64,000 nt of DNA, taken from positions 1,896 through 65,895 of the forward strand of contig JACMJL010000185.1 of assembly GCA_014380625.1 (NCBI GenBank), in the 5' to 3' direction. How positions within the stretch are numbered: position 1 is the first letter of the stretch; the number at the start of each line of letters is the position of its first letter. Positions 9,621 through 62,706 of the stretch are shown piece by piece. The notes beneath the pieces are model-generated. The model was not told the origin of the DNA, made no database searches, and saw only the letters and a program-made list of their open reading frames with translations. Position numbers and translations under genes: made by a program. Source of the DNA: Clostridiaceae bacterium (GTDB taxonomy: Bacteria > Bacillota > Clostridia > Clostridiales > Clostridiaceae).

Positions 9621-9631
9621 TCTTTAACGAA

Positions 9632-18302: not shown

Positions 18303-18572
18303 GCCGTGCACCCAGCGTCGACATTAACTTATGAGCGTTACCATTATAGGTGGCTCAAGTCAGATTTTTCCACGGCACACGAAAGTTTTTGCTTACCGCT
18401 GCTTCCTTCCGGATCTGACGGAGTTCACAAATTTTCGTTGCGTGGGACCCGACTCTCAACACCACTTCTAATGGTCAGACCTCACAAGTTAAGGCCTCAA
18501 CTGGGAATTCAACCCTGCTACAGCGGATTGCAGGTTACAGGGCACCGCTATCTCCCCATCTAGCACGACAAA
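18303..18572 (-). ncRNA. ffs: signal recognition particle RNA, long (Bacillus scRNA-type, with Alu domain)
   Basis: The reverse complement reads GTCGTGCTAGATGGGGAGATAGCGGTGCCCTGTAACCTGCAATCCGCTGTAGCAGGG ... GTCAGATCCGGAAGGAAGCAGC ... GGTGCACGGC. It is colinear with B. subtilis scRNA as I recall it, including the domain IV motif. Ends are approximate (+/-5 nt). Confidence 0.85.
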
Positions 18573-18579
18573 GTTTAAC

Positions 18580-18669
18580 TGGCGGAGAAAAGGGGATTCG
18601 AACCCCTGGTAGAGTTGCCCCTACACACGCTTTCCAGGCGTGCTCCTTAAACCGCTCGGACATCTCTCC
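18580..18669 (-). tRNA. tRNA-Ser(GGA): tRNA-Ser (anticodon GGA), CCA encoded
   Basis: The reverse complement GGAGAGATGTCCGAGCGGTTTAAGGAGCACGCCTGGAAAGCGTGTGTAGGGGCAACTCTACCAGGGGTTCGAATCCCCTTTTCTCCGCCA folds as follows: 7-bp acceptor stem, anticodon stem CACGC/GCGTG with loop CTGGAAA, long variable arm, GGTTCGAATCC T-loop, discriminator G. Confidence 0.9.
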
Positions 18670-34997: not shown

Positions 34998-34998
34998 A

Positions 34999-36525: not shown

Positions 36526-36605
36526 TTAGATTTAACCTCCTAAAAAAAACATTTTGCAATTTATAGTAAGATGGGGACAGCCTTTGCCATCCCACACTTT
36601 TAGTT

Positions 36606-37667: not shown

Positions 37668-37704
37668 TTAATAATCCCCCCAAAATTGTAATATGTAACG
37701 CTTT

Positions 37705-37718
37705 TGTAAACGCTAACC
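37705..37718. promoter_or_regulatory. candidate cre (CcpA) site in the xylF leader
   Basis: TGTAAACGCTAACC versus the consensus TGWAANCGNTNNCW (last position deviates). It lies 38-51 nt upstream of the xylF ATG. A related TGTAACGCTTTT lies immediately beside it (37694-37705). Confidence 0.4.
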
Positions 37719-37898
37719 TTATAATACAATTATTTTAATGAATATACTCTATATAGAATTACTATGAATCTTGATATTATTAACTACTAATTTCCAACTA
37801 AATCTTTGTATAGGATTTTTTCCACCCAATCTTAGAAAAATCCACTTTACAAAAGGGGCTATCTCAAAATAAAATTAATTAATTTGAAATAGTCCCTT

Positions 37899-38987: not shown

Positions 38988-38995
38988 ATCTCCAC

Positions 38996-40585
38996 CTAAC
39001 CCTTATTAAAATTTTTTATATACTCAGAAGGTGTTATTTTCTCATTTTTCTTAAAAATATAGCTAAAATAATTTGGATCTGTATATCCTATTTCAAAACA
39101 TATTTCTTTAATATTTAGATTTGAACTTTTCATAAATTCTTTTGCCTTATCAATCCTTATTCTAGTGAGATACTCTATAAAATTTACTGAAGTTTCTTCT
39201 TTAAAAAGTCTACTAAAATAATGAGGGCTTACAGAGACCTCCTTAGAAACTTCCTCTAAGGTTATCTCCTTATTAAAATTTTCATTAATAAATCGCTTTG
39301 CATTAATAATAATTTTATTAACCTTCTTGTTATGTAGTTCTTTTATAGAGCCTATTATATTGATGATTCTTTCCCTACAGTAGTTTTCTAACAAGGAATA
39401 ATCTTGTATGTTATTCATATTAAACAGGTAACTTTTATTATCTTCTTTACCCCCAAAATCAAAAGCCATTTTATCTATAATAATCATTAACTCAATTAAT
39501 CTCCATTTACCAATTTCAAAGGAATCTTTATAATTTTCATTTATCCATGTGTATATCTTTTTAAAAGCATCAAATGCGGAATCCTTATCCGCAAGAATAA
39601 TCATTTCTTTTAATCTATTTTCCTGGTCCTTAGGATACTCTGTTAGATTGTACATTTCTGATATTATATCTTTAATATGAACAATTCCTTTGTCTCTTGG
39701 ATAATGGAGAGCCCTTAAAGCCTCTTCATAGGAACTTGATATGTTTTCTAATTTTTTACAACTCCCAATTCCTATATTAAAGTTTAATTCGCTACTAAAA
39801 CTTTTTAGTTTATCCAGAGCATAATTAGCAACTTCAAAAGCTTCCACTCTATCGTTATATTCCGAACTAAAATCAGACTCTACAAATATAACCACCCTAT
39901 TTATCATAGCTGGTCCAATTAAGCATGGACATTTGTATTTAAAGGCATCCCTAAGGATCTTATAATATGCCTGCTCAGCATCTAATTCTAACTTTTCCTC
40001 GAAACTAATAATATTATCCTTCTCCTCAGACTCTAGAATCATAATATATCCACCGTTTTCATATAACCCGAGGATTTCTTTATATCTATCTACTTTTCTT
40101 CCATAACTTTCGCCTAAAAGAATAGAATATATAAAACCATATTCCAAAAACGGAATTACATTTTGATACTTCTCAATATTTTCAAGCTCTCGCATTCTTT
40201 TTTCTCGCTCATAGGTTAATCTTTTTATAACATTATCAATAATGTTTATTAAATCATTTTTTATTATTGGTTTTAAAACGTAATCCTTTACCCCTAACGT
40301 TAACGCTTCTTTAGCATATTCAAACTGTTCATAGGCTGAAATAATAATAAAGTTAATATTGGGGCGAGTATTTTTCATCTCAGTTATAGCATCTATACCA
40401 TTAATACCTGGCATTCTAATATCCATTAGTACTATATCCGGATTAAAGCTTTCGTTTTTAACTATAGCCTCACGACCTGTCCTAGCTGAATCCATGGTTA
40501 TTTCTGTACTAAAGTTTCTTTCTATAATAAAAGATACTGCATCTATTACAATCTTTTCATCATCTACAATTAAGAGTTTAAACAC
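38996..40585 (-). CDS. YesN-type response regulator (receiver + AraC HTH)
   Basis: 529 aa. MFKLLIVDDE, LMDIRMPGINGI, C-terminal AraC HTH (..PHYFSRLFKEETSVNFIEYLTRIRIDKA..GYTDPNYFSYIFKK). Confidence 0.85.
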   Translation of the reverse strand: MFKLLIVDDEKIVIDAVSFIIERNFSTEITMDSARTGREAIVKNESFNPDIVLMDIRMPGINGIDAITEMKNTRPNINFIIISAYEQFEYAKEALTLGVKDYVLKPIIKNDLINIIDNVIKRLTYEREKRMRELENIEKYQNVIPFLEYGFIYSILLGESYGRKVDRYKEILGLYENGGYIMILESEEKDNIISFEEKLELDAEQAYYKILRDAFKYKCPCLIGPAMINRVVIFVESDFSSEYNDRVEAFEVANYALDKLKSFSSELNFNIGIGSCKKLENISSSYEEALRALHYPRDKGIVHIKDIISEMYNLTEYPKDQENRLKEMIILADKDSAFDAFKKIYTWINENYKDSFEIGKWRLIELMIIIDKMAFDFGGKEDNKSYLFNMNNIQDYSLLENYCRERIINIIGSIKELHNKKVNKIIINAKRFINENFNKEITLEEVSKEVSVSPHYFSRLFKEETSVNFIEYLTRIRIDKAKEFMKSSNLNIKEICFEIGYTDPNYFSYIFKKNEKITPSEYIKNFNKG

Positions 40586-42104
40586 CGTTTTCTTCCCCCT
40601 TAAACAATGGTAATTTTAGAACTATACTTGTACCCTTACCTACCACAGATTTTATTTCAAATACATCCTGTTCTCCGTAAAAACTTCTTAGCCGCTTTAT
40701 TACATTATTTAAACCAATATTAGTTGTATGTCCTTTTTTATTTTTATCTTTAATAACTACTTTTTCACTACTAGGATTGAGAATTTGCTCAATAGTTTTT
40801 CTGTCCATGCCCCTGCCATTATCCTCAATTACAACTTGAACAACCTTATCTGTTTTCTGTACACTTATGGTTATAAGTCCGCCAACCTCCATGTCCCCAA
40901 CCCCATGAATACAGGCATTTTCAATAACAGGTTGCAAGATTTGTGCAGGCATACTAACCACTAATCCTTCCTCTTCAATATTATATTCATATTTAATCAA
41001 CTCTCCAAATCTTGTTTCTAATAAGAAAATATATGAATATACGTTTTGAATTTCTTCTTGTAATGTAACTGGATTATCCATACTTCTCAAATTATATCTA
41101 AACAAATCCGACATTTTTGCAAGAAAATTACTAGTCTTTTCAGCATCCTCCATCATTGCGAGTTGAACCCCTGCATTTAAAGTATTAAACAGAAAATGAG
41201 GATTAATCTGAGACTGAAGTGCCTGTAACTCAGCATTTTTCAAAAGATTCTTCATTTTTAAATTCATAACCTTTTGGTCCTTAAGCTTTGATTCAGTTTC
41301 AGCTTGATACTTCAATTCGCCAATGTGATTTCTAATATTTTCCTTCATTTTATTAAAAGCATCTGCCATAACTTTAATCTCATCATTAGTATCAACTTGT
41401 ACATTTTCTGTATCAAAATTGTTCTTAGATATTTCATTTGCTGATTTTGCAAGACTAACGATTGGAACAGAAGTATTATTAGCAAACCAAAAGGTTAGGA
41501 CTACATTTAATAAAAATGTGCTGGCAATAATTACTATATTAAGTAATTGAAGAAATTTTAGTTTTTCAGTAATAGAAAAATATTTTTCAGTATTTTCATG
41601 AAATTGATTTAGATTTAACTGTTTTATATAAAAGTTTATATAACCCATAATTTCCTTACTTTCACTATATCTTAAATTATATTCATTTACATTTCTTCCT
41701 CTTTTTGAACTTATTGCTGCATCTCCCTGAGCTAAATATTTATCTATCATATTTCCAATATCCTTTAACATTAACTTTCCGTTATTGTAAGAAATATCTC
41801 TACTCATTTTGTTGGAACTATTTCTTAAATTATCACTGTTTTTTATATAATCTCTTAAACTATTGGAGCTTTTAGTTGTTAAATAGTTTAACAGCTCTTC
41901 ATCTATAGCCTGTATATCCACAGAGAGTTTAGTTAAATATATATCGTTAATAAACATATAATCAAATTTCTCTAAAATATGTTTAGCATTATACAATGTA
42001 TATAGGCTTGTAGAAATCATTATTAGAATTAATAGTAAGGAATAAAGTAATAGCTTACCCCGAATAGTATTAAAGCCTAACACCTTTTTTAAATAATTTA
42101 TCAC
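40578..42104 (-). CDS. LytS/YesM-type sensor histidine kinase
   Basis: Two TM segments flank an extracellular domain, followed by a HAMP domain. His_kinase motif QINPHFLFNTLN and an ATPase domain (IEDNGRGM). 8-nt overlap with the regulator gene. Confidence 0.85.
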   Translation of the reverse strand: MINYLKKVLGFNTIRGKLLLYSLLLILIMISTSLYTLYNAKHILEKFDYMFINDIYLTKLSVDIQAIDEELLNYLTTKSSNSLRDYIKNSDNLRNSSNKMSRDISYNNGKLMLKDIGNMIDKYLAQGDAAISSKRGRNVNEYNLRYSESKEIMGYINFYIKQLNLNQFHENTEKYFSITEKLKFLQLLNIVIIASTFLLNVVLTFWFANNTSVPIVSLAKSANEISKNNFDTENVQVDTNDEIKVMADAFNKMKENIRNHIGELKYQAETESKLKDQKVMNLKMKNLLKNAELQALQSQINPHFLFNTLNAGVQLAMMEDAEKTSNFLAKMSDLFRYNLRSMDNPVTLQEEIQNVYSYIFLLETRFGELIKYEYNIEEEGLVVSMPAQILQPVIENACIHGVGDMEVGGLITISVQKTDKVVQVVIEDNGRGMDRKTIEQILNPSSEKVVIKDKNKKGHTTNIGLNNVIKRLRSFYGEQDVFEIKSVVGKGTSIVLKLPLFKGEENGV

Positions 42105-42127
42105 CTTTTTCCCCTTCCTTAATTCTT

Positions 42128-43123
42128 TTATTTCAAATAATTCTTCAAATTCGACTTAGTAATTACTATTGAATCAGTATGTATATATGCTGATACTCTT
42201 CCGTTCTCTTTCAAACTTACCAGGGTCTTAATACTGTCACAGCCAATTTTATATGCTGCCGGAACTATAGTTCCATAAATTATTCCCTTTTGTATATAAC
42301 TTAATATTTCAGGAGTGCTGTCATAGCCTATAATTGTTATGTCTCCTACTCGATTAAAATCTACTACCAATTGAGCAGCACCAATAGTATCCTTAGAGCT
42401 TGTACAAATTATTGCATTTACTTCATGATTATTAATTAATATATCCTGTGTTATGTCATTTGCTCCAAGTATTCCAGTATCAGATACCTTTACTGTCTCT
42501 ACCTTAATATCCTTAAAACTTTTTATTCCATTATTGATGCCATCTAATTTAACATTTTCATTTACATTTCCTTCTAGACTTTCTAATATTACCGCTACCT
42601 TTGCTTTGCCGTTTAACGCCTCTGCCACTAATTGCCCAGCCTTTGAACCAGTTTCAAATCCATTTGTCCCAACATAGGCGGATCTTTTACTATTTGATAA
42701 ATCTGCATCTAAGTTTATAACTGGTATTTTATTCTCTTCAGCTTTATCTATTAACTTTTGAAATTCTGTGGTGCTATAAGCATGAGTAATTATTCCATCC
42801 ACCCTTGAAGCTATGGCTATGTTTATATATTTTATTGCATCCTTATAATCGTCTACACCGTTGCTATAATTTATTTCAATAGCTGTATTCAAAGAATTAG
42901 CTGTATCCTTTAATCCTTTTTCAACCTCTTTTATGTAAGGCTCATCTGTATTACGCAAGATAATTGAAAAATGATATTTAGGGGGTTTCTTAGATGAAAA
43001 CATTGGACCTTTTTCGTCCATAACCATTACATCAATTTTTCTAGAGTAACTTATTGATAGCACAATTGAGGCTGTGACAATTATAAGTAAAACTAAAATT
43101 ATGATCTTATATAGTATTTTCAT
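42128..43123 (-). CDS. membrane-anchored periplasmic-binding-protein-like (type I, ribose/LacI fold) sensor component
   Basis: 331 aa. An N-terminal TM anchor, then a PBP type I fold (VDGIITHAY, IPVINLDAD, YVGTNGFETGSKAGQ, IIGYDSTPE). First gene of the sensor operon. Confidence 0.7.
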   Translation of the reverse strand: MKILYKIIILVLLIIVTASIVLSISYSRKIDVMVMDEKGPMFSSKKPPKYHFSIILRNTDEPYIKEVEKGLKDTANSLNTAIEINYSNGVDDYKDAIKYINIAIASRVDGIITHAYSTTEFQKLIDKAEENKIPVINLDADLSNSKRSAYVGTNGFETGSKAGQLVAEALNGKAKVAVILESLEGNVNENVKLDGINNGIKSFKDIKVETVKVSDTGILGANDITQDILINNHEVNAIICTSSKDTIGAAQLVVDFNRVGDITIIGYDSTPEILSYIQKGIIYGTIVPAAYKIGCDSIKTLVSLKENGRVSAYIHTDSIVITKSNLKNYLK

Positions 43124-43226: not shown

Positions 43227-44093
43227 CTAAAATCCAATTAATCCATCTAATTTTTTTTCTAAATCCTCTGTAACTTCTACTAAGGGTAATCTAACTTCTG
43301 AAGAATCTATTAATCCCAACTTTTTTAGACAATACTTTAAAGGAGTTGGATTAGGTTGTTGAAATAACATTGGAATAAGTTTATACAATTCCTTCCAGGT
43401 TTCTAAGGCTGCTTTATTATTATTTTTAGTAATATCATTATATACCTTAATGAAGCCTTCTGTATTTATATGTGCAGAGGCTAGAATACCTCCGTCCCCC
43501 CCTAAAGAAAGTGTTGAATAAAACAAGGCATCTTCCCCAGTAAGAATAGAAAAATCTTTAGGTCTATTTAGTAACAGGTCTGTTGTTTGAAGGATATCTC
43601 CACTAGAATCCTTAATCGCCACTATATTCTTTAGCTCAGCTAATTTATGAATTGTGGTGTTTTCAATATTTCTTCCAGTCCTATAAGGTATATTATATAA
43701 AATAATATCTAAATAAGTTGCCTCTGAAATACTCTTAAAATGTTGAAAGATCCCTCTTTGATCTGGTCTAGAGTAATAAGGAGAAACGGATAATATTCCG
43801 TTTATTTTATACTTTTCTGCTACCTTAAGTTTCTCTACTACCTTTTTTGTATTATTTCCACCCAAGCCCACATAAATAGGAACAGCCCCCTTGGTGTACT
43901 CTATGGTTTTTTCAATTATCTCCTCATATTCAGGTTCTGAAACTGTAGGACTTTCACCTGTCGTTCCCAGTGGTATAAAACCATGCACGCCTTTAGTTAA
44001 ATAAAAATCTACCATTCTTTTATAAGAGACATAATCCACCTTGTCCTCCTTAAATGGTGTTACTAATGGAACGAAAACTCCGGATATACCCAT
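43227..44093 (-). CDS. dapA: 4-hydroxy-tetrahydrodipicolinate synthase
   Basis: 288 aa. GTTGES, YNIPYRTG, Schiff-base Lys region VAIKDSSG. Confidence 0.9.
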   Translation of the reverse strand: MGISGVFVPLVTPFKEDKVDYVSYKRMVDFYLTKGVHGFIPLGTTGESPTVSEPEYEEIIEKTIEYTKGAVPIYVGLGGNNTKKVVEKLKVAEKYKINGILSVSPYYSRPDQRGIFQHFKSISEATYLDIILYNIPYRTGRNIENTTIHKLAELKNIVAIKDSSGDILQTTDLLLNRPKDFSILTGEDALFYSTLSLGGDGGILASAHINTEGFIKVYNDITKNNNKAALETWKELYKLIPMLFQQPNPTPLKYCLKKLGLIDSSEVRLPLVEVTEDLEKKLDGLIGF

Positions 44094-44115: not shown

Positions 44116-44360
44116 CTAAAAAAATAAGAGCCTTGGAGAAATCCAAGGCTCTTTTACTCAAATAAATTTAAATAAGAATAAAGTTCGCGTTGGATAGCTC
44201 TCCACAATAAAATTGTGACAGTCTTACATATATTTTATGCAAAACCAGTATAATAGCCTTTAAGCATATGCTATTTACTTCGGCGATAATTCCTTTCCCA
44301 TTATATCTATGTGCTTACCTCAATAATGGTACTCTTAAGTCTCGCGCCTCTACCTCTAAA
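44116..44360 (-). promoter_or_regulatory. lysine riboswitch (L-box) with terminator
   Basis: The minus strand reads GGTAGAGGCGCGAG..AGAGTA..GGGAAAGG..TCGCCGAAG..CTGG..GACTGTCA..TGGAGAGCTATCC (L-box core). This is followed by the hairpin AAGAGCCTTGGA-TTTC-TCCAAGGCTCTT and T7 (44116-44153). Confidence 0.85.
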
Positions 44361-48921: not shown

Positions 48922-49881
48922 CTACATTGGCAATTCGTTTAAAGTTTTAAATTCAAAACCTTTGCTTGTCCACTCTTTTAATAAATAATCTAAAATATTT
49001 GCATTTGTTTTAGAAACGGCATGTAACAGAAGTATTCCACCGTTATGAGTTCTTTGCATAATTAGATTTTTTGCATAATCCTCACTAGGTTGTTTAGCGG
49101 TATCCCAATCTGCATAGGCAAAACTCCAGAAAACAGACTTATAACCTAACTGTTGAGTGTAATACATTGATAATTCACTATATTTACCCATTGGTGGTCT
49201 AAAGAATTTCTTCATTTTAGTTCCAGTTAGGGTTTCAAAGGTATTTTCACAAGTAATAAGTTCTGCATTAAATTTATCTCTATCCCTAATTCCTGCCATT
49301 GAGGGATGAGTAGTTGAATGATTACAAACAAGGTGTCCTTCAGCTACCATTCTTTTAATTAAATCCTTATTATCATTAATATAAGGTGTAGTTACAAAAA
49401 AGGATGCTTGTACATTATTAGCTTTTAAGATATCCAGCATTTTTGAAGTATATCCATTTTCATAGCCTTCATCAAAGGTAAGATAGTTAATTTTTTTTGT
49501 AGTATCTCCAAGGTAATAACCACTAAACCGTTGAAGGTAATCCCCTACTTCTTTTGGCGGAGCAGGCGAAGTACCATCAGTTTTAGGGCTATAATACCAA
49601 TTTTTTTCTGAGGAACTTAAAGTTAAGGGGTCAGCCGTAGGTTTATCTGAAATCGGAGTACTAGGCTTATTAACTACAACTTCTGGAGTACTTGGTTCTG
49701 GTTTAATGTTATCTTTTGAAGGTTTCGGCGTACTTGGTTCTGGTTTTACATTATTATTTAAAGGTGCTGTAACAGTATGTGAAATAATAGGCTTTTGGAC
49801 AATAGCTTCAGGCTCGTTTCTTCCACAACCTACAAAAACTAATGAAATCAACAGAATTAAACTAATAGTATTTCTTTTCAT
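48922..49881 (-). CDS. pdaA: polysaccharide deacetylase lipoprotein (PdaA-like, delta-lactam-type)
   Basis: Lipobox FVGC. A Pro-rich linker with a duplicated KPEPSTP, then YLTFDEGYENGYT, NHSTTHP, FRPPMGKYS, LLLHAVS, colinear with B. subtilis PdaA as I recall it. Confidence 0.8.
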   Translation of the reverse strand: MKRNTISLILLISLVFVGCGRNEPEAIVQKPIISHTVTAPLNNNVKPEPSTPKPSKDNIKPEPSTPEVVVNKPSTPISDKPTADPLTLSSSEKNWYYSPKTDGTSPAPPKEVGDYLQRFSGYYLGDTTKKINYLTFDEGYENGYTSKMLDILKANNVQASFFVTTPYINDNKDLIKRMVAEGHLVCNHSTTHPSMAGIRDRDKFNAELITCENTFETLTGTKMKKFFRPPMGKYSELSMYYTQQLGYKSVFWSFAYADWDTAKQPSEDYAKNLIMQRTHNGGILLLHAVSKTNANILDYLLKEWTSKGFEFKTLNELPM

Positions 49882-50121: not shown

Positions 50122-50268
50122 ATGCCACAAATATTTTGGTACTATTCCGTAGTTGCAATAGGTATAGCAATGATTATATTTACAATGTATAAAAAACGAA
50201 ACTTTGCTGATTTATTTTCATTTTTTTTAGCTGCTGCCTCCTTTGGCTATTTACAGGAGTATATATAA
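50122..50268 (+). CDS. possible 48-aa membrane peptide (below the ORF-track size cutoff)
   Basis: ATG at 50122 follows a GAGGTG RBS by 6 nt. MPQIFWYYSVVAIGIAMIIFTMYKKRNFADLFSFFLAAASFGYLQEYI has two hydrophobic stretches. It could be a gene fragment. Confidence 0.3.
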   Translation: MPQIFWYYSVVAIGIAMIIFTMYKKRNFADLFSFFLAAASFGYLQEYI

Positions 50269-50383
50269 TATAAGATGTTCCATGTTCGTCTTCCACAATT
50301 TAAAAAGTAAACAAATTACCTTAAGATGATTTCTATTTAATTAAATTTATTGTCAAATTTAATCGAAAAGTGTAGCTACACTA

Positions 50384-50412
50384 TTGACATTTTATTCTAT
50401 TAATTATAAGAT
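50384..50412 (+). promoter_or_regulatory. sigma-A promoter driving the c-di-GMP riboswitch
   Basis: TTGACA (50384-50389), a 17-nt spacer, then TAAGAT (50407-50412). Confidence 0.55.
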
Positions 50413-50424: not shown

Positions 50425-50520
50425 ATACTTTTCTTTTGAAAAGAGCAAACTTGTTGAAAAACAAGGACGCAAAGCTACGAATCTACGGCAAAAGCTATGA
50501 TAGTCGGGTTACCAAAAGGG
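50425..50520 (+). promoter_or_regulatory. c-di-GMP-I (GEMM-I) riboswitch
   Basis: GAGCAAAC-TTGTT-GAAA-AACAAG-GACGCAAAGCTAC...CGGCAAAAGC...AGTCGGGTTACCAAAAGG. Matching features are the GCAAAC element, a GNRA-capped P1 hairpin, ACGCAAAGC and CGGGTTACC, which fit the GEMM-I core (Vc2/Cd1-type) as I recall it. Confidence 0.8.
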
Positions 50521-50577
50521 GAAACAAAATACCATAAGTTTTCTCTCATTGGAATAAATTATTAGGGGGATTTTTTT

Positions 50578-51984
50578 ATGGTTATTTTTATTAAAAAGGG
50601 TAAGTTTCTTTTATTCTTACTAGCTATTCTAGTTGTATTTTCTGGTTTTCAACTTAATAGGGTACAAGCTATTTCTCAAACTATATACACTCCTATTGAA
50701 AGTACTAAGGTACTAAATAACCCTTTAATGGGTTGGGCTCCTGATGCAAGATGGATTTTAAAGACACAAAAATATAAGTTAGTTTTTGCATCATTAACTT
50801 GGAGTGACCTTGAAGCACAAAAGGGGATATACAATTTTAGTGCAATTGAAACAAAATTCAATTTTAGTTATTGGCACCAACAGGGTGTTAAAGTCATTAT
50901 TAGAGTAGTTTTGGACAATCCTAGTAGTATAAACCATAAAGATATTCCTAATTGGCTATATAACGAAATAAATGGAGACGGTATTTGGTACAATAATAGC
51001 TACGGTCAAGGCTTCAGTCCAAATTATGAGAATGCTACACTGTTAGCTTATCATCAAAAATTAATTTCTGCACTTGGACAAAAATATAATAATTCTGGTG
51101 ATATTGCTTTTATAGAACTCGGTAGTCTTGGTCACTGGGGTGAATGGCACACAATGCAAGCTACAGGATACACCTTTATACCTTTCCCTAGCGAGGCCAC
51201 TGCTAATAAATATGTTACTCATTATATTAATAGTTTTTCCAATAAAATTAAGTTAATGAGAAGACCTTTTAATATCGCGAAAACTAATAATTTAGGCCTC
51301 TTCAATGATGTTTTTGGAGATATCGTCCAAACTGACAGATATCTTTCATGGATAAACAATGGTTACTATAATAATTATACCAAAGCACAACAGCCTGCAA
51401 TGATAGATTTTTGGAAAAAAGCTCCCTCAGGAGGAGAATTCGCAAACGGAAAAGCTGGTGTTCAATATTTCAGCGATATTAACTTTAGTAATACTCTTAC
51501 TAAAGCTAAGGAAACCCACTTATCTTGGGTTGGTCCAAATTGTCCTGCAAATCAACCACTTAACGGAACAATACAACCTAATATGGATAGTTTTTTAAAT
51601 ACAATTGGATATAAATTTGTTATTTCTCAAGTGTCATATTTGCCTACTATACAGCGTTCGAAGTCTGCTTCCCTTACAATTACTATCAACAACAAAGGAG
51701 TGGCTCCATTTTATTACAAATGGCCTGTAACTCTTTATCTAATGGATTTGAATGGAAATGTAATAAACAAGCAAACTTCAACTGAAGATATTAGAAATTG
51801 GCTTCCAGGTATAAGAACCTTTAGCTCTAATTTATATATACCTTCAAAAACTAAACTAGGCACTTATAAACTGGCAATAAGTATAAATGACCCGTCCGCC
51901 CTAAATCAATCCGTAGACTTCGCAAATGAGGGCAAAACCTCATCCGGCTACTTCTATATCGGTAATATAACTGTAGCAAATTAA
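50578..51984 (+). CDS. secreted glycoside-hydrolase-like protein (clan GH-A TIM barrel; DUF4874/DUF4832-type as I recall)
   Basis: 468 aa with a signal peptide. LTWSDLEAQKGIYNF, GSLGHWGEWH, APSGGEFA. Paralogue of 52030-54012. Confidence 0.7.
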   Translation: MVIFIKKGKFLLFLLAILVVFSGFQLNRVQAISQTIYTPIESTKVLNNPLMGWAPDARWILKTQKYKLVFASLTWSDLEAQKGIYNFSAIETKFNFSYWHQQGVKVIIRVVLDNPSSINHKDIPNWLYNEINGDGIWYNNSYGQGFSPNYENATLLAYHQKLISALGQKYNNSGDIAFIELGSLGHWGEWHTMQATGYTFIPFPSEATANKYVTHYINSFSNKIKLMRRPFNIAKTNNLGLFNDVFGDIVQTDRYLSWINNGYYNNYTKAQQPAMIDFWKKAPSGGEFANGKAGVQYFSDINFSNTLTKAKETHLSWVGPNCPANQPLNGTIQPNMDSFLNTIGYKFVISQVSYLPTIQRSKSASLTITINNKGVAPFYYKWPVTLYLMDLNGNVINKQTSTEDIRNWLPGIRTFSSNLYIPSKTKLGTYKLAISINDPSALNQSVDFANEGKTSSGYFYIGNITVAN

Positions 51985-51987
51985 AAA

Positions 51988-52029
51988 TAGAGACTATATC
52001 AAAATTTAATCATTTTGATATAGTCTCTA
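51988..52029. terminator. bidirectional terminator between the two convergent hydrolase-like genes
   Basis: 18-bp perfect stem TAGAGACTATATCAAAAT/ATTTTGATATAGTCTCTA flanked by A5 and TTATTTT. Confidence 0.85.
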
Positions 52030-54012
52030 TTATTTTACAATTGAGAAATCGTCAATCACTGAACTATACTGGGAGTTTTCCTCTTTAAACTTTACTCTTA
52101 GGCCAATTTGAGAAACACTATTTTCATCTTTACACTTTATATTAAATATATCCTCTTCCTTATTGTTTTCCGTAAGATTAAATATTCTTATCTTATCTTT
52201 ATTCTTTTTAATCATAATATTAGCAGGAAGTTTGATAATACTACTTTCTTTATCACAACTTATTTTTAAAGCATTATTATCAACATAGTTTATATTAATA
52301 ATCTGTTGAATATTTCCATCAGTGTTGTTCTCAATACTATAATTCTTAATATTTGAATTAGGATTTTTTAAACCAAGTTTTATTTCATAACCATCTGAGT
52401 TTAAGAGGTTTCTATAAATAAAACATTGATTTTCAGAACTTTGTTCTTTATTTTTAGGAATCGAATTTATTGTCAGCTTTTCACCGAAATAATCAATATA
52501 ATTGTAATAATTATTATTTTTTAAATCATTACAATTATAGGGATATTGCATAATCACTTCCGTTTCACCAACACTGCAAGTTTTACTTTCTTCACTTCCT
52601 GTATTAGCAAATTCAATTTCAGGTTTCTTTGTTTCAGGATTTAGAAGGTAAACATTCATATTATATATTCCTGCTGATAAACTTTTGTTTAAAGGAATAT
52701 CAAAATCAATATCAGCACTTCCAGGAAGCAGTTTCTTGATATTATAATCAAACTTGAATGTATCCATAATACTTTTATTTATATAATTAATTGATAAATA
52801 TAATGGCCATTCAAAATAGAAGGGTGCTACACCTGAATTTCTAAGGCTTATTTTACCTTTTAATTTATCACCAGGATAATTTTTGTCAAGGTATTGGGAC
52901 TTTGTAACAGTATACCTATATCCCATAAGATTCAAAAGTTTACTAAGATTTCTCTGTTTATCATCCTCAAGCTTAACGTATCCAGGATTGCTCGGTCCTA
53001 ACCAACTTGTATGACTATTCTTAACCATATTAATTGTGCTTTCTATAGATCTATCCTCAAGATATTCATCACCGGGATAGTTGGCAAATTCACCTCCAGA
53101 TGGAGCTTCCGTCCAAAAATCTTTCATACTCGGATTTTGTTGTTCAATGTTTGGGTCCTCATAACCGTTATTTACCCAGTTAAGAAAATAATCATTAGTT
53201 TGAAAATCATCTCCAAAGGAATCATTAAAAAGTCCCATTTTATTATCCTTCGCTATCTGAAAGGGCCTTCTCATAAGTAAAATCTTATTTTTAAAGTAGT
53301 CAAGATATGGTTCTACATACAGATCAGTAATATTTGTCTTTGGAAAGTTGTTATTTCCCCCTAATAAAGAATTGTGCCATTCACCCCACTGACCTATACT
53401 CCCAATCTCTACAAAGGCAATTTCCCCATCCTTATCATACCTTTCTGATAATGCCTTTATTAAATCTAAATGATACTTGATCAAAAGTTTATTATTATAG
53501 TCTGGAGAAAAACCCTTCTGTCCATCTTTGTCATACCAGCTACCCTTACCTTGGATTTCATTATAAACCCATTCTGGGATATCCATATGCTTTACATCTG
53601 AAGGGTAATCGAGATACAACCTGATTACAAACTTGATTCCTTTTTCTTTCCAATGATCATAGCGTATTTTTGTCTCAAAGGCTTGAAAATCAATCCTACC
53701 CTTTTGGGGCTCCATCTCTCTCCAAGAAACCCCCGCATAAACCATAGAAAATGGTTGAGGTATATTTTCAGATGTGCTATCCATAACAAGTCCAATATAT
53801 GGATTTGTTATAACCCTGTCGCTTTCTTGGAAAACATTCACCTTATCTTCCTGTTTTACACGGTTTACTCTATCTTCTTTACTTGATTTAAAGCTAAAAA
53901 ACCCACATCGTAAAATCAATATTACAAGTAGACAAAGAACTACAATTATATTTATTAAAATAAATGATTTCATCTTTCTCTCATCCATGGCGTCATTCCG
54001 CATAATCCCCAT
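52030..54012 (-). CDS. membrane-anchored glycoside-hydrolase-like protein (paralogue of 50578-51984) with ~190-aa N/K-rich C-terminal extension
   Basis: 660 aa. TM anchor FILINIIVVLCLLVILIL, VSWREMEPQKGRIDF, GSIGQWGEWH, APSGGEFA. The start is uncertain (ATGs at 54012, 54003, 53988 and 53973). Overlaps the DUF4956 gene. Confidence 0.7.
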   Translation of the reverse strand: MGIMRNDAMDERKMKSFILINIIVVLCLLVILILRCGFFSFKSSKEDRVNRVKQEDKVNVFQESDRVITNPYIGLVMDSTSENIPQPFSMVYAGVSWREMEPQKGRIDFQAFETKIRYDHWKEKGIKFVIRLYLDYPSDVKHMDIPEWVYNEIQGKGSWYDKDGQKGFSPDYNNKLLIKYHLDLIKALSERYDKDGEIAFVEIGSIGQWGEWHNSLLGGNNNFPKTNITDLYVEPYLDYFKNKILLMRRPFQIAKDNKMGLFNDSFGDDFQTNDYFLNWVNNGYEDPNIEQQNPSMKDFWTEAPSGGEFANYPGDEYLEDRSIESTINMVKNSHTSWLGPSNPGYVKLEDDKQRNLSKLLNLMGYRYTVTKSQYLDKNYPGDKLKGKISLRNSGVAPFYFEWPLYLSINYINKSIMDTFKFDYNIKKLLPGSADIDFDIPLNKSLSAGIYNMNVYLLNPETKKPEIEFANTGSEESKTCSVGETEVIMQYPYNCNDLKNNNYYNYIDYFGEKLTINSIPKNKEQSSENQCFIYRNLLNSDGYEIKLGLKNPNSNIKNYSIENNTDGNIQQIININYVDNNALKISCDKESSIIKLPANIMIKKNKDKIRIFNLTENNKEEDIFNIKCKDENSVSQIGLRVKFKEENSQYSSVIDDFSIVK

Positions 54013-54673
54013 TATAACTTATAAGTGATGCATCCATAACTCCAGGAATTTGAGATATTTCATTTACGAAGCTGGAATTATTACTTTTAACTTTAACCTC
54101 AACAGAAAGTTCAGTAATTCCTTTTGCCACTGTCTTTCCCTTTGTTACATACTTCATTCCTTCAAGAATTATTTTAACATTATCCTTTGCTTCCTCTTCA
54201 AAATGAATAATTAACATATAAGTTCTACTTTTAATCTTATAATTTGTCATTATTAAAATAATCAAACCTACAAAAAGAGACCCGAAAATAGAAACTGAAT
54301 AAACCTTAGCTCCAGACGCTATTCCCACAGTTATTGCCCAAAACATAAACATAATATCCATTGGATCCTTCAGAGCCGTTCTAAATCTTACAATACTAAG
54401 AGCTCCTACCATACCTAAAGACAGGGCCACATTTGAGCTTATTGTTAAAACTATAAGAGATGTCAGCATACACATCATCAATAGGGAAACATTATAAGCG
54501 TAGCTATATACAACCCCTTTAAAGGTATACTTATATATGAAAAATATAAACAACCCTGCTATTAAGGTAAACACTAAACAGATCATTACTTCAGATGTTG
54601 GTATTTTTTGGAACGTATCTAAATTTGAAAAACCCTTTTTTAAAATATCTTGAAAATTCAAACTCTTATCCAT
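53993..54673 (-). CDS. DUF4956-family membrane protein
   Basis: 226 aa with about 4 TM segments. The signature ALSIVRFRTALKDPMDIMFMFWAITVGIASG is what I associate with DUF4956. The C-terminal ~80 aa form a soluble domain. Confidence 0.7.
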   Translation of the reverse strand: MDKSLNFQDILKKGFSNLDTFQKIPTSEVMICLVFTLIAGLFIFFIYKYTFKGVVYSYAYNVSLLMMCMLTSLIVLTISSNVALSLGMVGALSIVRFRTALKDPMDIMFMFWAITVGIASGAKVYSVSIFGSLFVGLIILIMTNYKIKSRTYMLIIHFEEEAKDNVKIILEGMKYVTKGKTVAKGITELSVEVKVKSNNSSFVNEISQIPGVMDASLISYNGDYAE

Positions 54674-58575: not shown

Positions 58576-59990
58576 TAACCTTCACCCACCACTTCATCAT
58601 AGATTTTCCTATAGCTATTTATAAAGTTATCGATTGTATATAATTTTGATACTCTATTATAGGCACTTTTGCCCATGTCTTCTCTTAATTTTTTATCTTG
58701 GCTGAGCCGAATTATAGCTGCACCAAATGCCTCATAGTCCATTACAGGTACAACAATTCCTGCATCACCGAAATCATCATCTGCTCCATACATCAGTTCT
58801 CTGCAACTACCTACATCAGTTAAAATATGAGGTTTTTTTGTGGCCATGCCCTCCAATACTGCCAAAGGTTGTCCTTCGCTAATACTACCTAGAACTAAAA
58901 CATCCATTTTACCTATATAGTCTCTCACATTTACTTGGCCAGTAAATATTACATTTTTAAGGCCTAAGGATTTAGTAAAAGACTTGCATTCTTCTGTATA
59001 AATTAAGTCTTCATCCACAGGTCCCATAATAAACAACTGTATGTTTTTTATTTTTTCAGAAGCAATTTCAAAGCCTTGAATTATTGTCTTAATATCCTTT
59101 ATAGGTACTACCCTTAAAATTGCACCAATATTAATGATGTTCTCATCTTCCTTAATCACATTAATATCAATATAATCCCTACAATTAATACCATTGGGTA
59201 CTACTGAGATTTTATCTTCTGCACACCCTATCTCTATTTGAACCTTCTTATTACGATCAAATAGTGTAATAACTGAATCTGAAAAGGAATAAGCACACCT
59301 GGATAAATTGTAAAAGTATTTTATCCAGATATCTTTAAAGTGCCCTTTAACCCAATCAGCTTTAATTAACTCTTCTTCCCTCTCTCTGGTATAAATTCCA
59401 TGTTCAGTGAGTACTAATGGTGCACCATATTTATATTTTCCAAAGGCCGCCATTACCCCTGCATATCCCGTAGATACACTATGATATAGATCAGCTTTTG
59501 GTATGCCCTTTTTTATCACCTCAAATAATGCTAAAACCATAGATCTTATGGTCCAAAAAAAATCATTAAAAACTACATAGGGAAAATATTCTTCACATAC
59601 TTCACGTATTATATCAAAAAAATCTTTACTCATTAATAATTCAGAAACAGTAGTATCTCTGTTCTCATCAATAAACCTAAATAAATCCTGCCAGTCAAAA
59701 TATTCTCCTGTTATCAATCCTTTAATTGCGGCTTTTTCAGAAGGTTTTAAGGTATACCTCTTTCTAGGCTCTCCAGTTTCATTAAGGTAGGAATCCAGAA
59801 AAACTTCTTGAATATCTATAATATTATCAGGAAACTTGTATTTAAACTTCCCTTTTGATTCCTCATGTGCGCCTATAGAGTATATAATAAACTCATGTTC
59901 AGGCATTAATCTTATGAGTGTCTGTATCCAGCTTGATACTCCTCCGGTTATATATGGATAGCTGCCTTCTGCTACAATACATATCTTCAT
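58575..59990 (-). CDS. pelF: GT4 glycosyltransferase PelF
   Basis: 471 aa. MKICIVAEGSYPYITGGVSSW (DUF3492-type N-terminus) and a GT4 C-terminus (..SISEGQPLAVLEGMA). Confidence 0.85.
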   Translation of the reverse strand: MKICIVAEGSYPYITGGVSSWIQTLIRLMPEHEFIIYSIGAHEESKGKFKYKFPDNIIDIQEVFLDSYLNETGEPRKRYTLKPSEKAAIKGLITGEYFDWQDLFRFIDENRDTTVSELLMSKDFFDIIREVCEEYFPYVVFNDFFWTIRSMVLALFEVIKKGIPKADLYHSVSTGYAGVMAAFGKYKYGAPLVLTEHGIYTREREEELIKADWVKGHFKDIWIKYFYNLSRCAYSFSDSVITLFDRNKKVQIEIGCAEDKISVVPNGINCRDYIDINVIKEDENIINIGAILRVVPIKDIKTIIQGFEIASEKIKNIQLFIMGPVDEDLIYTEECKSFTKSLGLKNVIFTGQVNVRDYIGKMDVLVLGSISEGQPLAVLEGMATKKPHILTDVGSCRELMYGADDDFGDAGIVVPVMDYEAFGAAIIRLSQDKKLREDMGKSAYNRVSKLYTIDNFINSYRKIYDEVVGEG

Positions 59991-61816
59991 TTCGCACCTT
60001 CCGTTTCTATATTAAATTCAGAATCAATGGCCTTAATTAAATACGCATTATCATCGATTTTTGTAAAAGAACAACCCGTACATTTACTAATTTTTTTGTC
60101 AGTCCTTAAAATAAAATACATTTGATCTCTAAAGTTTTTAGAATATCCTTTAATGTTTTTCTCACTATATTTAAATTCAGTTTCAGTATCTAGATATCTA
60201 CTTAACTCAACTCCGCCCTTTGAAATAGTCATACTTCTTAGCCAATTAAAGTTATTGTGTATATCTTTCATCATTCCATTATAGTCCCTATACATATCTT
60301 CCCAACTGATTCCCAAACTCCTACTTGAATCTAATATATCATCCGGATGGAGGAAATGTGAAAAGGTTCCATATGCTGTTATTCCATTATATATTGACCA
60401 TTTTTTTTCTGAAGTGTACTTATATCCAGAAGATATACGAGGTAACTGTAAAAACCCATCATCACTTTTTTCAAATTCTTGTACATATTCATCTCCACTT
60501 AAGCCTCCCTGAAAGACAGAGGAAATTATCTTTAAGTCCGGCATAGAATTATGAAGTGCTTCTATACCTTCATCACTGATAACATTGGAGGGAGGTACAT
60601 AACTTGTTATATTATAATTAGGAAAAACAGTATGAAAATAATTGTTTACTTCTTTTAAAGACGCCTCCATATTATTAATATTAGGCCAGCTATTATATCC
60701 TAAGTCCACTTTCATAAATCCTTTGAAAACGAGAGATTGATGATTATAACCGTGTATCCCTATTTCCCCACCACTTTTAATTATTTCGTGACCAACTCTC
60801 AATAGCGTATTCCTGGTTTCTTGATCTCTTACTATATCAAAATTTGGAGAAACCCTGTTGTTATAAACTTCAATATAGAAGGTTGAATATTTTGTATCAT
60901 ACTGTTTTGAGCTTTTAAGCATGTCCGGCCACCATATATCAGAAAAAAAACTAGATGCATCCTTGCCATAATCCTTAAAAATACGCTCATTATAACCTAT
61001 TGGAATAGGTGCAGGAAAGTCATCAATAAAACTTAGTTTCATATTCATTACAGGGTAGATAAATCCAGTTTCAATCTGACCTAAAATACCAGCAAAAAGT
61101 CCTCTATTCTCCTTTTCCACAAAAAATTGCCCGTTGGAAAATATAACCTTACCTGTCCCAATTTTCTTTTCCCAAATGAGGGGTCTATTGTCACTTGAAA
61201 CACTGTATACCTTACAATCATTATCAAGCTGTACAGCTATAGAGGATATTACTGCAGTACTATCTTCTGCACCTTTCCCTTTTAAAAGGACATTAGTCAA
61301 CATTTTCATACCCTTAACTTCATCAATGGTGCCTCTTTCATAAATTCCAAGCTTTCTATATATACTAGAGAAGTTACCGCTTTGTATTGGCCTTTCTGCG
61401 ATAATTACACTACCACCCTTCTCTACATATTTAAAAAGATTATCAAAGTAATCAAAATTCTCAAAATTCTCAAAATCAAGTATTACGCAACTATAACCTT
61501 CAAAAGTAGCACTAGTATCTTTAACATCTTCATAGGTTACGTGCTTTTTCATTCCAGAAAATAGCTTTTCTAAATTTTCCTTAATCTTGATACTGGCTTC
61601 TTCTGAAGAATTAAAAACAAAAAGATACTTTTCATTTCCTTCATTTTTGATTGTATCAAATAGTTTTGAAGTTTTAACTGGAACATTTACATAATCTTTA
61701 TAAACATCCTTATTACCTACATTATTTAGAACAAAATTAGCTCTGATTACGAATAATAATGCAGATAATAATACTAATAAAACAATAAAACCACTGAAAA
61801 ATCTCTTATTAAGCAT
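59987..61816 (-). CDS. DUF2194-domain protein (PelA deacetylase-type component of Gram-positive pel loci)
   Basis: About 609 aa with a signal anchor. The ATG at 61816 shares one base with the pelE TAA (TAATG), after a GAGGGGGA RBS. Its position between pelE and pelF matches the Gram-positive pel order. Confidence 0.7.
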   Translation of the reverse strand: MLNKRFFSGFIVLLVLLSALLFVIRANFVLNNVGNKDVYKDYVNVPVKTSKLFDTIKNEGNEKYLFVFNSSEEASIKIKENLEKLFSGMKKHVTYEDVKDTSATFEGYSCVILDFENFENFDYFDNLFKYVEKGGSVIIAERPIQSGNFSSIYRKLGIYERGTIDEVKGMKMLTNVLLKGKGAEDSTAVISSIAVQLDNDCKVYSVSSDNRPLIWEKKIGTGKVIFSNGQFFVEKENRGLFAGILGQIETGFIYPVMNMKLSFIDDFPAPIPIGYNERIFKDYGKDASSFFSDIWWPDMLKSSKQYDTKYSTFYIEVYNNRVSPNFDIVRDQETRNTLLRVGHEIIKSGGEIGIHGYNHQSLVFKGFMKVDLGYNSWPNINNMEASLKEVNNYFHTVFPNYNITSYVPPSNVISDEGIEALHNSMPDLKIISSVFQGGLSGDEYVQEFEKSDDGFLQLPRISSGYKYTSEKKWSIYNGITAYGTFSHFLHPDDILDSSRSLGISWEDMYRDYNGMMKDIHNNFNWLRSMTISKGGVELSRYLDTETEFKYSEKNIKGYSKNFRDQMYFILRTDKKISKCTGCSFTKIDDNAYLIKAIDSEFNIETEGAK

Positions 61817-62706
61817 TATTCTTCCCCCTCTAACCAAAACCTAAGTATTTTTATTCCGTTACTACTAAGCTTAACCTGAGAACTTCTAAGTTTTAACATA
61901 ATTCTATTAAACTGATTAACATTTTTATTTATATACCCTATTTGAAGCAACAATAGATATGGAGTTTCACTGTTTATAAATATCTCCATATAATTTTCAC
62001 AATATGAAATCGCCTCATTAAACTTTCTTAGTGTAATATCACATTTTATAATCTCTTCAAAATAAAATTCGTTAGTCTTGTCCATACTTAGGATTCTAAT
62101 TAAAATCTCTCTATATTTATACTGATTCTTTATATAGGCTTTTTTATCTAAAAGGCCACTTTCATTATACTTTTTTAATATTCCTACATAAGTTGTGAGA
62201 ACTTCCATATTAGAGTCATCCTGTTGATATTTCACCTCAAACTCTTGGAGTGCCATTGTAAGCTTTCTTTTTACTTCTGTAACTGCCGTGGCTGCATAAT
62301 GAGAGGTTTCTGTATCCTTATCTTTAAGTGCCTTTTTTAAGAAACCCAAATATTGATATGAATCGCCTTTTATAGCATTAATTATTAGTCTTCTCTTAAC
62401 ACTTTCATCATTTAATACAAGGGCTTCTTCAATAGGAATAATATCCATCGCATTTTTCAGGTCTCCACTTCTACGAATCAAACTTTCTTGTTTAAAATCA
62501 TTGTCAAACCAAAGTTTAAAATGCTTATTATCAAATTCTACTATATACTTTTCACATACTACCATTACAATATAAAAAATCACTCCACAAAAGGGGAGGA
62601 AAATCATTATTAAAAAGCCAATGATTGCATCTTTCTTTCGAACTTTTTTTTCATATAAATATATTACTATGCTTATAATGAAATTCACCAAATAAAACTT
62701 ATACAT
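61816..62706 (-). CDS. pelE: PelE-like protein (2 TM + TPR-like helical domain)
   Basis: 296 aa with two N-terminal TM helices, then a helical-repeat region. 8-nt overlap with the pelD-like gene. The assignment rests mainly on position and architecture. Confidence 0.6.
   Translation of the reverse strand: MYKFYLVNFIISIVIYLYEKKVRKKDAIIGFLIMIFLPFCGVIFYIVMVVCEKYIVEFDNKHFKLWFDNDFKQESLIRRSGDLKNAMDIIPIEEALVLNDESVKRRLIINAIKGDSYQYLGFLKKALKDKDTETSHYAATAVTEVKRKLTMALQEFEVKYQQDDSNMEVLTTYVGILKKYNESGLLDKKAYIKNQYKYREILIRILSMDKTNEFYFEEIIKCDITLRKFNEAISYCENYMEIFINSETPYLLLLQIGYINKNVNQFNRIMLKLRSSQVKLSSNGIKILRFWLEGEE

Follow-up and report, generated by a model that had tools for sequence, protein, structure and literature searches.

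A class I c-di-GMP riboswitch predicted to repress a secreted DUF4832 hydrolase gene convergent on a clostridial pel operon

Overview

The window analysed here is a 64,000-nucleotide stretch of contig JACMJL010000185.1 from a Clostridiaceae bacterium (assembly GCA_014380625.1, a metagenome-assembled genome), and its subject is a class I cyclic di-GMP (c-di-GMP) riboswitch aptamer at 50434-50516 in the leader of gene 50578-51984, which encodes a secreted hydrolase of the DUF4832 family and converges on a pel operon. From modelled RNA folds we propose, with a probability of about 0.6, that this leader is a translational OFF switch that represses the hydrolase when c-di-GMP is high, and that control is probably kinetic. 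The riboswitch class is well known; the new part is the gene target, an extra secreted copy of a Pel-locus hydrolase, together with the regulatory logic. The position had been pointed out earlier from the letters and open reading frames (ORFs) only (the original prediction), as a class I riboswitch in front of a hydrolase-like gene.

Identity of the aptamer

Comparison of the whole window with Rfam 15 gives a single cyclic-dinucleotide riboswitch match, to the c-di-GMP-I family (RF01051, GEMM-I) at 50434-50516 on the forward strand, with 80.7 bits against a gathering score of 35 (E 2.7e-14). The alignment spans model positions 1-87 of 87 and all helices are intact. The original prediction had named a GEMM-I core here and proposed this covariance-model scan as a check; the score is well above the gathering threshold, and every sequence element that it quoted is found, in the order GAGCAAAC, a GAAA-capped hairpin, GACGCAAAGCUAC and CGGGUUACC. 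Model R1, built in this analysis, scores the same segment at 99.3 bits. When the Rfam structure is applied to five related aptamers, 88.5% of cells are standard pairs (23-41% in slid controls), with compensatory changes at nine pairs. The elements of the aptamer are as follows.

50434-50516 (+): c-di-GMP-I (GEMM-I) aptamer core, by RF01051 score and covariation
50450-50465 (+): GAAA-capped hairpin within the core, CUUGUU-GAAA-AACAAG, with the GAAA loop at 50456-50459
50473-50510 (+): tetraloop-receptor hairpin within the core

The aptamer thus has the two hairpins docked by a GNRA tetraloop and its receptor, whose strands are CUACG and UAUG, one base departing from the consensus CUAAG. With Vc2, the Vibrio cholerae type example of RF01051, it shares this GAAA-tetraloop/receptor pair, GCAAAC, GACGCAAAG, GUUACC and the equivalents of A47 and C92, as well as the full-length match to the model, flanks that form a closing helix P1, and a location in the 5' untranslated region. 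It differs from Vc2 in having A in place of G20 and in the one receptor base, and from the RF01051 type in its expression platform, in which the Shine-Dalgarno (SD) sequence and AUG are sequestered, the 3' strand of P1 mimics the SD, and there is no terminator. That this is a genuine class I c-di-GMP-type aptamer is close to certain.

Leader and link to the downstream gene

The near-consensus promoter of the original prediction is present upstream of the aptamer.

50384-50412 (+): predicted sigma-A promoter, TTGACA-17-TAAGAT (-35 at 50384-50389, -10 at 50407-50412), matching 10 of 12 consensus positions

It ties for the top score in a 2.5-kb scan, in an AT-rich region in which promoter-like sites are no more frequent than in shuffled sequence (13 and 13.8 respectively), and it is plausible by position only. 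The predicted transcription start, near 50419, lies about 10 nt 5' of the P1 5' strand. A comparable spacing between promoter (TTGACT, then TATAAT) and aptamer is seen in L034, a 2.8-kb Logan contig whose aptamer (79.4 bits) ends 64 nt before the ATG of a gene encoding a protein 59% identical to the product of 50578-51984.

The ribosome-binding site (RBS) GGGGGA, also named originally, is found at 50565-50570, 49 nt past the end of the aptamer and 7 nt before the ATG at 50578, and no other credible ORF intervenes from promoter through aptamer to ATG. A terminator scan finds no terminator-like site between aptamer and start codon, and the one hairpin followed by a run of seven U residues reaches only -3.5 kcal/mol, in agreement with the original view that no clear intrinsic terminator precedes the RBS. 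Control of 50578-51984 by the aptamer in cis is highly likely.

Two other elements lie just 5' of the promoter. A 48-codon ORF at 50122-50268 (+), with GAGGTG 6 nt before its ATG, encodes a very hydrophobic peptide, MPQIFWYYSVVAIGIAMIIFTMYKKRNFADLFSFFLAAASFGYLQEYI; it may be the gene of a small membrane protein, and read-through from it into the riboswitch leader would be possible. A perfect 12-bp palindrome, GTGTAGCTACAC, occupies 50370-50381, 2 bp 5' of the -35 hexamer, where its high GC content stands out in the AT-rich spacer. It is not found upstream of the L034 promoter, and may be a regulator binding site that adds control at the level of the promoter.

Expression platform and switch direction

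Folding of the leader shows three mutually exclusive pairings, with the SD and start codon contained in one of them, the sequestor.

50428-50443 (+): 5' hairpin of the ligand-free state, CUUUUC-UUUU-GAAAAG (50428-50433 with 50438-50443), present in all folds without P1 and occupying the P1 5' strand
50429-50522 (+): closing helix P1, 10 bp, UUUUCUUUUG (50429-50438) with CAAAAGGGGA (50513-50522), in the minimum-free-energy fold of the full leader
50512-50552 (+): anti-sequestor of the ligand-free state, CCAA (50512-50515) with UUGG (50549-50552) and AGGGGAAAC (50517-50525) with GUUUUCUCU (50538-50546), in the minimum-free-energy fold of transcripts that end before the SD
50526-50588 (+): sequestor, UCUCUC (50542-50547) with the SD GGGGGA (50565-50570) and AAAAUACCAUAAG (50526-50538) with UUUAUGGUUAUUUU (50575-50588), covering the AUG at 50578-50580, from leader folding

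The same set of exclusive pairings is present in L034, where the 5' hairpin is AUUUC-UGUU-GAAAU (at 169-182), P1 is UUUCUGUUG with CAAUAGAGG, including a U-A to G-U double change, the anti-sequestor is GCCAA:UUGGC plus GAGGA:UCCUC, and the sequestor is CUCCUC:GAGGAG plus AACCGUACUA:UAGUAUGGUU. The SD, the anti-SD and the SD mimic co-vary between the two leaders (GGGGGA/UCUCUC/GGGGA in the window and GAGGAG/CUCCUC/GAGGA in L034), and next to the AUG the A-U pairs of the window are C-G pairs in L034.

At full length both leaders have a minimum-free-energy fold made up of the aptamer, P1 and the helix that buries the SD and AUG, and transcripts ending before the SD fold into the 5' hairpin and the anti-sequestor helix. 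The anti-sequestor is favored over P1 in these shorter transcripts (-30.1 vs -21.5 kcal/mol in the window, -35.6 vs -26.2 in L034), and P1 plus sequestor over the anti-sequestor at full length (-34.4 vs -31.6 and -46.7 vs -39.2 respectively). The sequestor alone has -13.4 kcal/mol (z = -2.9 against shuffles), and its L034 equivalent -19.7 (z = -4.9). The anti-sequestor takes up the P1 3' strand, which contains the SD-like GGGGA, together with the CC of GUUACC that includes the C92 equivalent, and is therefore incompatible with the ligand pocket in its bound state.

A model of the switch follows from these folds. Once transcription has begun near 50419, c-di-GMP bound during RNA synthesis would lock P1 (50429-50438 with 50513-50522), leaving the pyrimidine-rich anti-SD (50526-50547) free to pair with the SD and AUG (50565-50588) and block translation. 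Without ligand, the P1 5' strand would be held in the small local hairpin and the SD-mimicking 3' strand would pair with the anti-SD (50512-50525 with 50538-50552), so that the SD and AUG would remain single-stranded and be translated. Since the P1 3' strand is complementary to the anti-SD and not to the SD, OFF logic is the only one that the wiring allows. The original prediction had guessed at a translational or atypical platform, and both the leader folding and the comparison with L034 fit translational control.

An A at the G20 position of the ligand pocket

50444 (+): A at the Vc2 G20-equivalent position (model position 11, where the consensus is G), in the context AAAAG-A-GCAAAC

The other four aptamers compared, that of L034 included, have G at this alignment column (column 11). 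The original prediction had overlooked this base. The complete G20/A47/C92 set of ligand contacts is thus absent from the window aptamer, in which the A47 equivalent (in GACGCAAAG) and the C92 equivalent (in GUUACC) are retained, and the combination of A at position 20 with C at position 92 is the GEMM-Ib genotype. In Vc2, G20 contacts one base of the ligand and pairs with one guanine of c-di-GMP, and in riboswitches for cyclic GMP-AMP (cGAMP; GEMM-Ib) it is replaced by A (PMC6140456). The Vc2 G20A mutant binds c-di-GMP with a Kd of 53 nM and cGAMP with 120 nM, and the natural Cbe 1-2 riboswitch of Clostridium beijerinckii is bispecific (30 nM for c-di-GMP, 463 nM for cGAMP), holding c-di-GMP through a protonated adenine as A20-type RNAs do (PMC6140456). 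The window aptamer resembles both in its A at the G20 equivalent, and Cbe 1-2 likewise comes from Clostridium; the likeness is one of genotype, and the downstream genes differ from that of the window.

The window aptamer is, as judged from its sequence, best described as an A20-type GEMM-I aptamer, in which the genotype of strict selectivity fails at G20 and c-di-GMP binding as such does not thereby fail. A response to c-di-GMP is very probable, because the L034 ortholog has G20 and because the context includes PelD-like and HD-GYP genes (see below). Because the G20 equivalent is A, lower affinity is expected, by analogy probably nanomolar instead of picomolar, and 3',3'-cGAMP may be accepted as well. 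An orthologous pair of aptamers that differ at the G20/A20 specificity position is natural material on the drift of ligand selectivity.

The regulated hydrolase

50578-51984 (+): secreted DUF4832-family glycoside hydrolase, 468 residues; Pfam DUF4832 87.4 bits against a cut-off of 29.2

The product begins with a signal peptide (MVIFIKKGK, a hydrophobic stretch, then RVQA|IS), and also gives a sub-threshold Pfam match to DUF4874. An AlphaFold2 model built from 62 homologs (mean predicted local distance difference test score 92.9, predicted template-modelling score 0.88) consists of an (alpha/beta)8 TIM barrel followed by a C-terminal beta-sandwich. Sequence search detects no solved structure for this protein; Foldseek against the PDB places GH35 beta-galactosidases at the top (E ~2e-8, probability 1.00), and because the global template-modelling scores are low (0.3-0.37) the modelled match is a resemblance of fold, not GH35 membership. 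Two glutamates are invariant in the 62 homologs and in a paralog encoded by the pel operon, E189 (GHWGEWH, after strand 176-181) and E287 (PSGGEFA, in strand 284-288), and in the model they look like the candidate acid/base and nucleophile of a clan-A-type barrel. The secreted, hydrolase-like gene of the original prediction is therefore upheld by signal peptide, DUF4832 match and TIM barrel, and refined to a DUF4832-family glycoside hydrolase, paralogous to the last gene of the operon on which it converges.

By analogy the substrate is probably the Pel polysaccharide, because homologs repeatedly adjoin pel genes. They do so in about a dozen of the 35 loci of one neighborhood set and also in L116, L122 and L123; homologs next to pelG or pelD are found in L001-3, 6, 7, 9, 10, 12, 13, 16, 33, 35, 116, 122 and 123. 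Some converge on pelG (Paraclostridium, Romboutsia and several metagenomic contigs), some diverge from pelD (seven Paenibacillaceae genomes, six Paenibacillus and one Saccharibacillus), and others lie inside the operon (a Clostridia metagenome-assembled genome and C. botulinum).

A functional precedent is SIR_1591 of Streptococcus intermedius, a DUF4832 protein of 468 residues with a transmembrane helix, TIM barrel and DUF4832 sandwich that is encoded by the last gene of the same operon type (PMC12345266). The purified protein matches the PelA hydrolase domain in disrupting Pel-dependent aggregates (PMC12345266). The hydrolase of the window is like it in Pfam family, length, N-terminal hydrophobic segment, barrel and beta-sandwich, and in adjoining pelDEA(DA)FG-cotH-PPP-DUF4956 genes (PMC12345266, PMC7112168). 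They differ in that SIR_1591 is the operon copy, the positional equivalent of 52030-54012 in the window, whereas the riboswitch gene is an extra, convergent, stand-alone copy. A search with the operon paralog gives no streptococcal SIR_1591 ortholog among the matches listed.

Distribution of the association

About 120 DUF4832 loci were compared, 31 from reference genomes, 80 from metagenomes and about 10 individual homologs. A c-di-GMP-I aptamer lies directly 5' of a DUF4832-family gene in four of them, in three lineages: the window, L034, L007 and L025. Among the close homologs, L034 alone shares the aptamer with the window. In Paenibacillus methanolicus (L007) an aptamer at 9448-9536 (-) with 76.5 bits precedes a 633-residue distant DUF4832 paralog with a signal peptide, and this gene too is a second copy, convergent on a pel-linked DUF4832 gene. 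In Anaerosacchariphilus polymeriproducens (L025) a tandem at 9615-9833 (+), made of RF01051 and then RF03167 (the c-di-GMP-I-GGC variant) about 70 nt apart, precedes the last in a row of three DUF4832 genes; the product of that last gene has 1139 residues and contains Ig-like domains. The SD there (AAAGGAG) starts a few nucleotides past the end of the second aptamer, a position that would also suit repression by P1 formation. The three lineages are independent, and the association is rare but recurrent. With a handful of such riboswitches per genome, it is by rough estimate commoner than expected for a random gene.

The 80 metagenomic loci, collected by a protein-based scan, contain no c-di-GMP-I aptamer (0 of 80), either by regular expression or by model R1, and an exact-pattern scan of metagenome contigs with the conserved aptamer stretch GGCAAAAGCTATGANAGTCGGG gives no match. 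The closest homologs in Logan, ENA and NCBI (P0003, P0004, P0006, P0007, P0008, P0012, P0122 and P0126) have no aptamer. As no further aptamer-bearing homologs were obtained, covariation of the platform is limited to two sequences. The two Gram-positive pel papers PMC12345266 and PMC7112168 contain no occurrence of the word riboswitch, and literature using the phrase 'c-di-GMP riboswitch' has no co-mention of pelG among the matches listed.

Three of the compared loci show further features. In the closest aptamer-less homolog, L033 10001-11317 (+) (Bacillota metagenome-assembled genome GCA_030706015), the signal-peptide region has been lost in frame (MTIFTKK-NIPVES compared with MVIFIKKGKFLL...TPIES), and this lineage lacks both the riboswitch and the secretion signal; its pel operon encodes a fusion of PelD with an epimerase-like domain, and DUF2194 is not called there. 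In the Clostridia metagenome-assembled genome L012 a class II c-di-GMP riboswitch (57.7 bits) at 8150-8232 (+) lies 2.4 kb 3' of a pelG-cotH-VTC-DUF4956-DUF4832 operon. This locus was rejected as a further case, as its riboswitch precedes a glucan-phosphorylase-like gene (Phosphorylase plus DUF3417) and not DUF4832. On the 3' side of the L007 aptamer is a strong hairpin of 14 bp that lacks a U-run.

The convergent pel operon and signalling genes

Nine genes on the reverse strand form an operon, pelDEA(DA)FG-cotH-VTC-DUF4956-DUF4832, that converges on 50578-51984.

51986-52031: long perfect hairpin between the convergent genes, 20-bp stem with a T-run after it on the reverse strand, a candidate bidirectional terminator
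52030-54012 (-): operon DUF4832 paralog, 660 residues, DUF4832 81 bits, 39% identical to the riboswitch-controlled copy
53993-54673 (-): DUF4956, Pfam 44 bits
54688-55389 (-): VTC/polyphosphate-polymerase-like, Pfam 126 bits
55408-57117 (-): CotH kinase-like, Pfam 203 bits
57118-58575 (-): pelG, Pfam 432 bits
58575-59990 (-): pelF, NCBIfam equivalog 380.8 bits against a cut-off of 100
59987-61837 (-): pelA(DA), PelA deacetylase type, DUF2194 492 bits
61816-62706 (-): pelE-like, by position and homology to the same position in other loci
62699-63958 (-): pelD-like, first gene of the operon, by position and homology to the same position in other loci
21242-22306 (-): candidate HD-GYP c-di-GMP phosphodiesterase, Pfam HD_5 104 bits, motifs HD and HHERLDGTGYP; 28 kb away and context only

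This extended pel architecture, with cotH, a polyphosphate-polymerase-like gene, DUF4956 and DUF4832, has been described in clostridia and streptococci (PMC7112168). The product of 52030-54012 has an N-terminal membrane anchor with no obvious cleavage site, and among its named relatives the nearest, at 63% identity, is a DUF4832 protein of Clostridium botulinum encoded by the last gene of a pel-cotH-VTC-DUF4956 operon, after which there is no convergent second DUF4832 copy. Residues ~470-660 of the window protein form an Asn/Lys-rich C-terminal extension of ~190 residues with no Pfam match, absent from both the riboswitch-controlled copy and the C. botulinum ortholog (473 residues).

The original prediction had described 62699-63958 as encoding a PelD-like c-di-GMP receptor. 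In its favor are the position of the gene, N-terminal transmembrane helices and an RxxD motif (READ, R370-E-x-D373) that is invariant in nine homologs and sits 5 residues before the degenerate GGDEF position. The comparison with known structures does not add to this: the profile of the nine homologs aligns with the RxxD-GGEEF of a GGDEF structure at an insignificant E of 1.6, and the protein has no significant match to any solved structure, with a weak transmembrane match to KdpD only. We call the product PelD-like by synteny and motif. The other signalling gene of the original prediction, the HD-GYP gene 21242-22306, stands at the level of domain and motif. Adjoining it, 22383-23972 (-) encodes a response regulator whose DNA-binding domain is of the AraC type and whose middle domain is GGDEF_2-like (25 bits); this regulator may belong to the same signalling module.

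Weighing the readings

Several points weigh against a c-di-GMP OFF switch acting on a Pel hydrolase. At equilibrium the helix that covers SD and AUG is the most stable even without P1, and the open state appears only in length-limited folds; the unpaired share of the SD in the ensembles is 16% for the window and 26% for L034, the same with or without P1. A simple thermodynamic switch was therefore dropped in favor of a kinetic model, as no opening of the SD is seen when P1 is blocked, and by these models the switch works only under kinetically controlled folding, so that the decision must fall during transcription. This would fit measurements on other GEMM riboswitches, whose binding competence is confined to a range of transcript lengths (PMC9262584). 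Comparative support for the platform comes from two sequences only. Both the A at the G20 position and the C in the tetraloop receptor (CUACG, not CUAAG) could weaken binding. Deletion of SIR_1591 in S. intermedius has no aggregation phenotype (PMC12345266), and the comparison with that protein is an analogy of family, length, architecture and synteny. A homolog of 60% identity (L033) and all of the ~10 examined at 48-52% identity are without aptamer, and regulation of this kind is therefore not general for these genes. Finally, there is no diguanylate cyclase, GGDEF or EAL enzyme among the scanned ORFs of the window, a scan that seven large ORFs at 33780-43123 lie outside.

The same aptamer and gene could instead form an ON switch, in which c-di-GMP induces the hydrolase to supply a processing activity that Pel production requires. 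PelA hydrolase activity is required for cell-free Pel in Pseudomonas, and the near-equal accessibility of the SD with or without P1 at equilibrium leaves room for this direction. Glycoside hydrolases are integral to exopolysaccharide systems (PMC12345266), and one class I riboswitch of C. difficile, Cdi-1-1, responds positively (PMC6200980). It is nonetheless an unlikely reading, given that in the window and in L034 a stabilized P1, whose 3' strand complements the anti-SD, can only close the RBS, and that the operon already encodes a co-expressed processing hydrolase (52030-54012). Control could also act on transcription or mRNA stability, either with the UCUCUC...GGGGGA hairpin and its U7 (50542-50577) as a ligand-dependent terminator or with the closed RBS exposing the mRNA to Rho or RNases. 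Premature termination is the mode of most characterized clostridial class I c-di-GMP riboswitches (PMC6200980, truncated RNAs), and the seven-U run is directly 3' of the SD hairpin; but this hairpin is weak, with a 17-nt loop, and is missed by the terminator scan, no U-run follows its L034 equivalent, and the conserved feature is the SD/AUG pairing. We regard this as less probable still than ON control.

The remaining alternatives concern the aptamer itself. The GEMM-Ib genotype raises the possibility that 3',3'-cGAMP, or both dinucleotides, and not c-di-GMP alone, is the physiological ligand: A50444 aligns with G20, cGAMP riboswitches have A there, and both Vc2 G20A and the natural Cbe 1-2 bind the two ligands (PMC6140456). 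Cbe 1-2, though, prefers c-di-GMP (PMC6140456), the G of the L034 riboswitch makes c-di-GMP the ancestral signal, the genomic context (PelD, HD-GYP) is one of c-di-GMP signalling, and no cGAMP synthase is known for the host, of whose genome 64 kb was viewed. This falls between the previous two alternatives in probability, and is doubtful. Lastly, an inactive relic without regulatory role might be supposed from the two deviations, G20 to A and CUAAG to CUACG, at functionally important positions and from the lack of an aptamer in most homologous loci. With a score more than twice the gathering threshold, intact helices, and platform pairings matched in an ortholog whose protein is just 59% identical, this is very improbable. 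A translational OFF switch for c-di-GMP remains the reading that we prefer.

A predicted circuit and its precedent

On the OFF-switch reading, high c-di-GMP would turn Pel synthesis on through PelD and keep the free hydrolase off, and falling c-di-GMP would release the hydrolase and favor loosening of the matrix or dispersal. The modelled OFF architecture thus points to a hydrolase made at low c-di-GMP, a secreted DUF4832 TIM-barrel enzyme most likely cleaving Pel and paralogous to the membrane-anchored operon copy. By this prediction one messenger would both activate the Pel synthase and, at the RNA level, repress a secreted enzyme from a family with a member that dissolves Pel aggregates. 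We infer in this sense the control of the matrix by c-di-GMP at two levels that the original prediction had suggested. Little is known of how Gram-positive Pel biofilms are switched off, and the predicted circuit is a concrete model of dispersal that also hints at what the widespread DUF4832 proteins may do.

The closest parallel is the zmpI riboswitch of Clostridium difficile (Cdi-1-12). Class I riboswitches in C. difficile are OFF switches; c-di-GMP represses the protease ZmpI, which cleaves adhesins, and induces the substrates of ZmpI through class II ON riboswitches (PMC6200980). Both there and, as predicted, here, a class I OFF aptamer is placed on a secreted enzyme that removes an adhesive surface component induced by c-di-GMP (PMC6200980), and the predicted outcome is alike, to build at high signal and release at low. 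The target in C. difficile is a metalloprotease acting on protein adhesins, with control at the transcript level, whereas here it is a polysaccharide hydrolase with predicted translational control.

A wider and rather speculative reading, which we consider unlikely, is that two paralogous Pel hydrolases are under opposite regimes, with the secreted copy under a dinucleotide riboswitch that possibly senses cGAMP too, as part of a general RNA-level dispersal module. If so, the membrane-anchored copy would be co-transcribed with the synthase and the secreted copy held off by the riboswitch; a cGAMP response would tie degradation of the matrix to a different signal from that which drives synthesis; and the independent aptamer-DUF4832 pairs in three Bacillota lineages would mark a general, undescribed module for RNA-level Pel dispersal.

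Other features of the window

Divergent from the riboswitch gene, 48922-49881 (-) encodes a CE4 polysaccharide deacetylase (Pfam 109.6 bits), a second enzyme near pel that modifies matrix or wall; its N-terminus (...LVFVGC) resembles that of a lipoprotein, and it has a linker rich in Pro, Ser and Thr. A lysine riboswitch (RF00168, 120 bits) at 44187-44360 (-) lies 5' of a dihydrodipicolinate synthase (DHDPS, dapA-type) gene at 43227-44093, an ordinary arrangement. The RNA of the signal recognition particle, of the large bacterial type (216 bits), is encoded at 18304-18669 (-), directly 3' of a tRNA with a long variable arm (54 bits).

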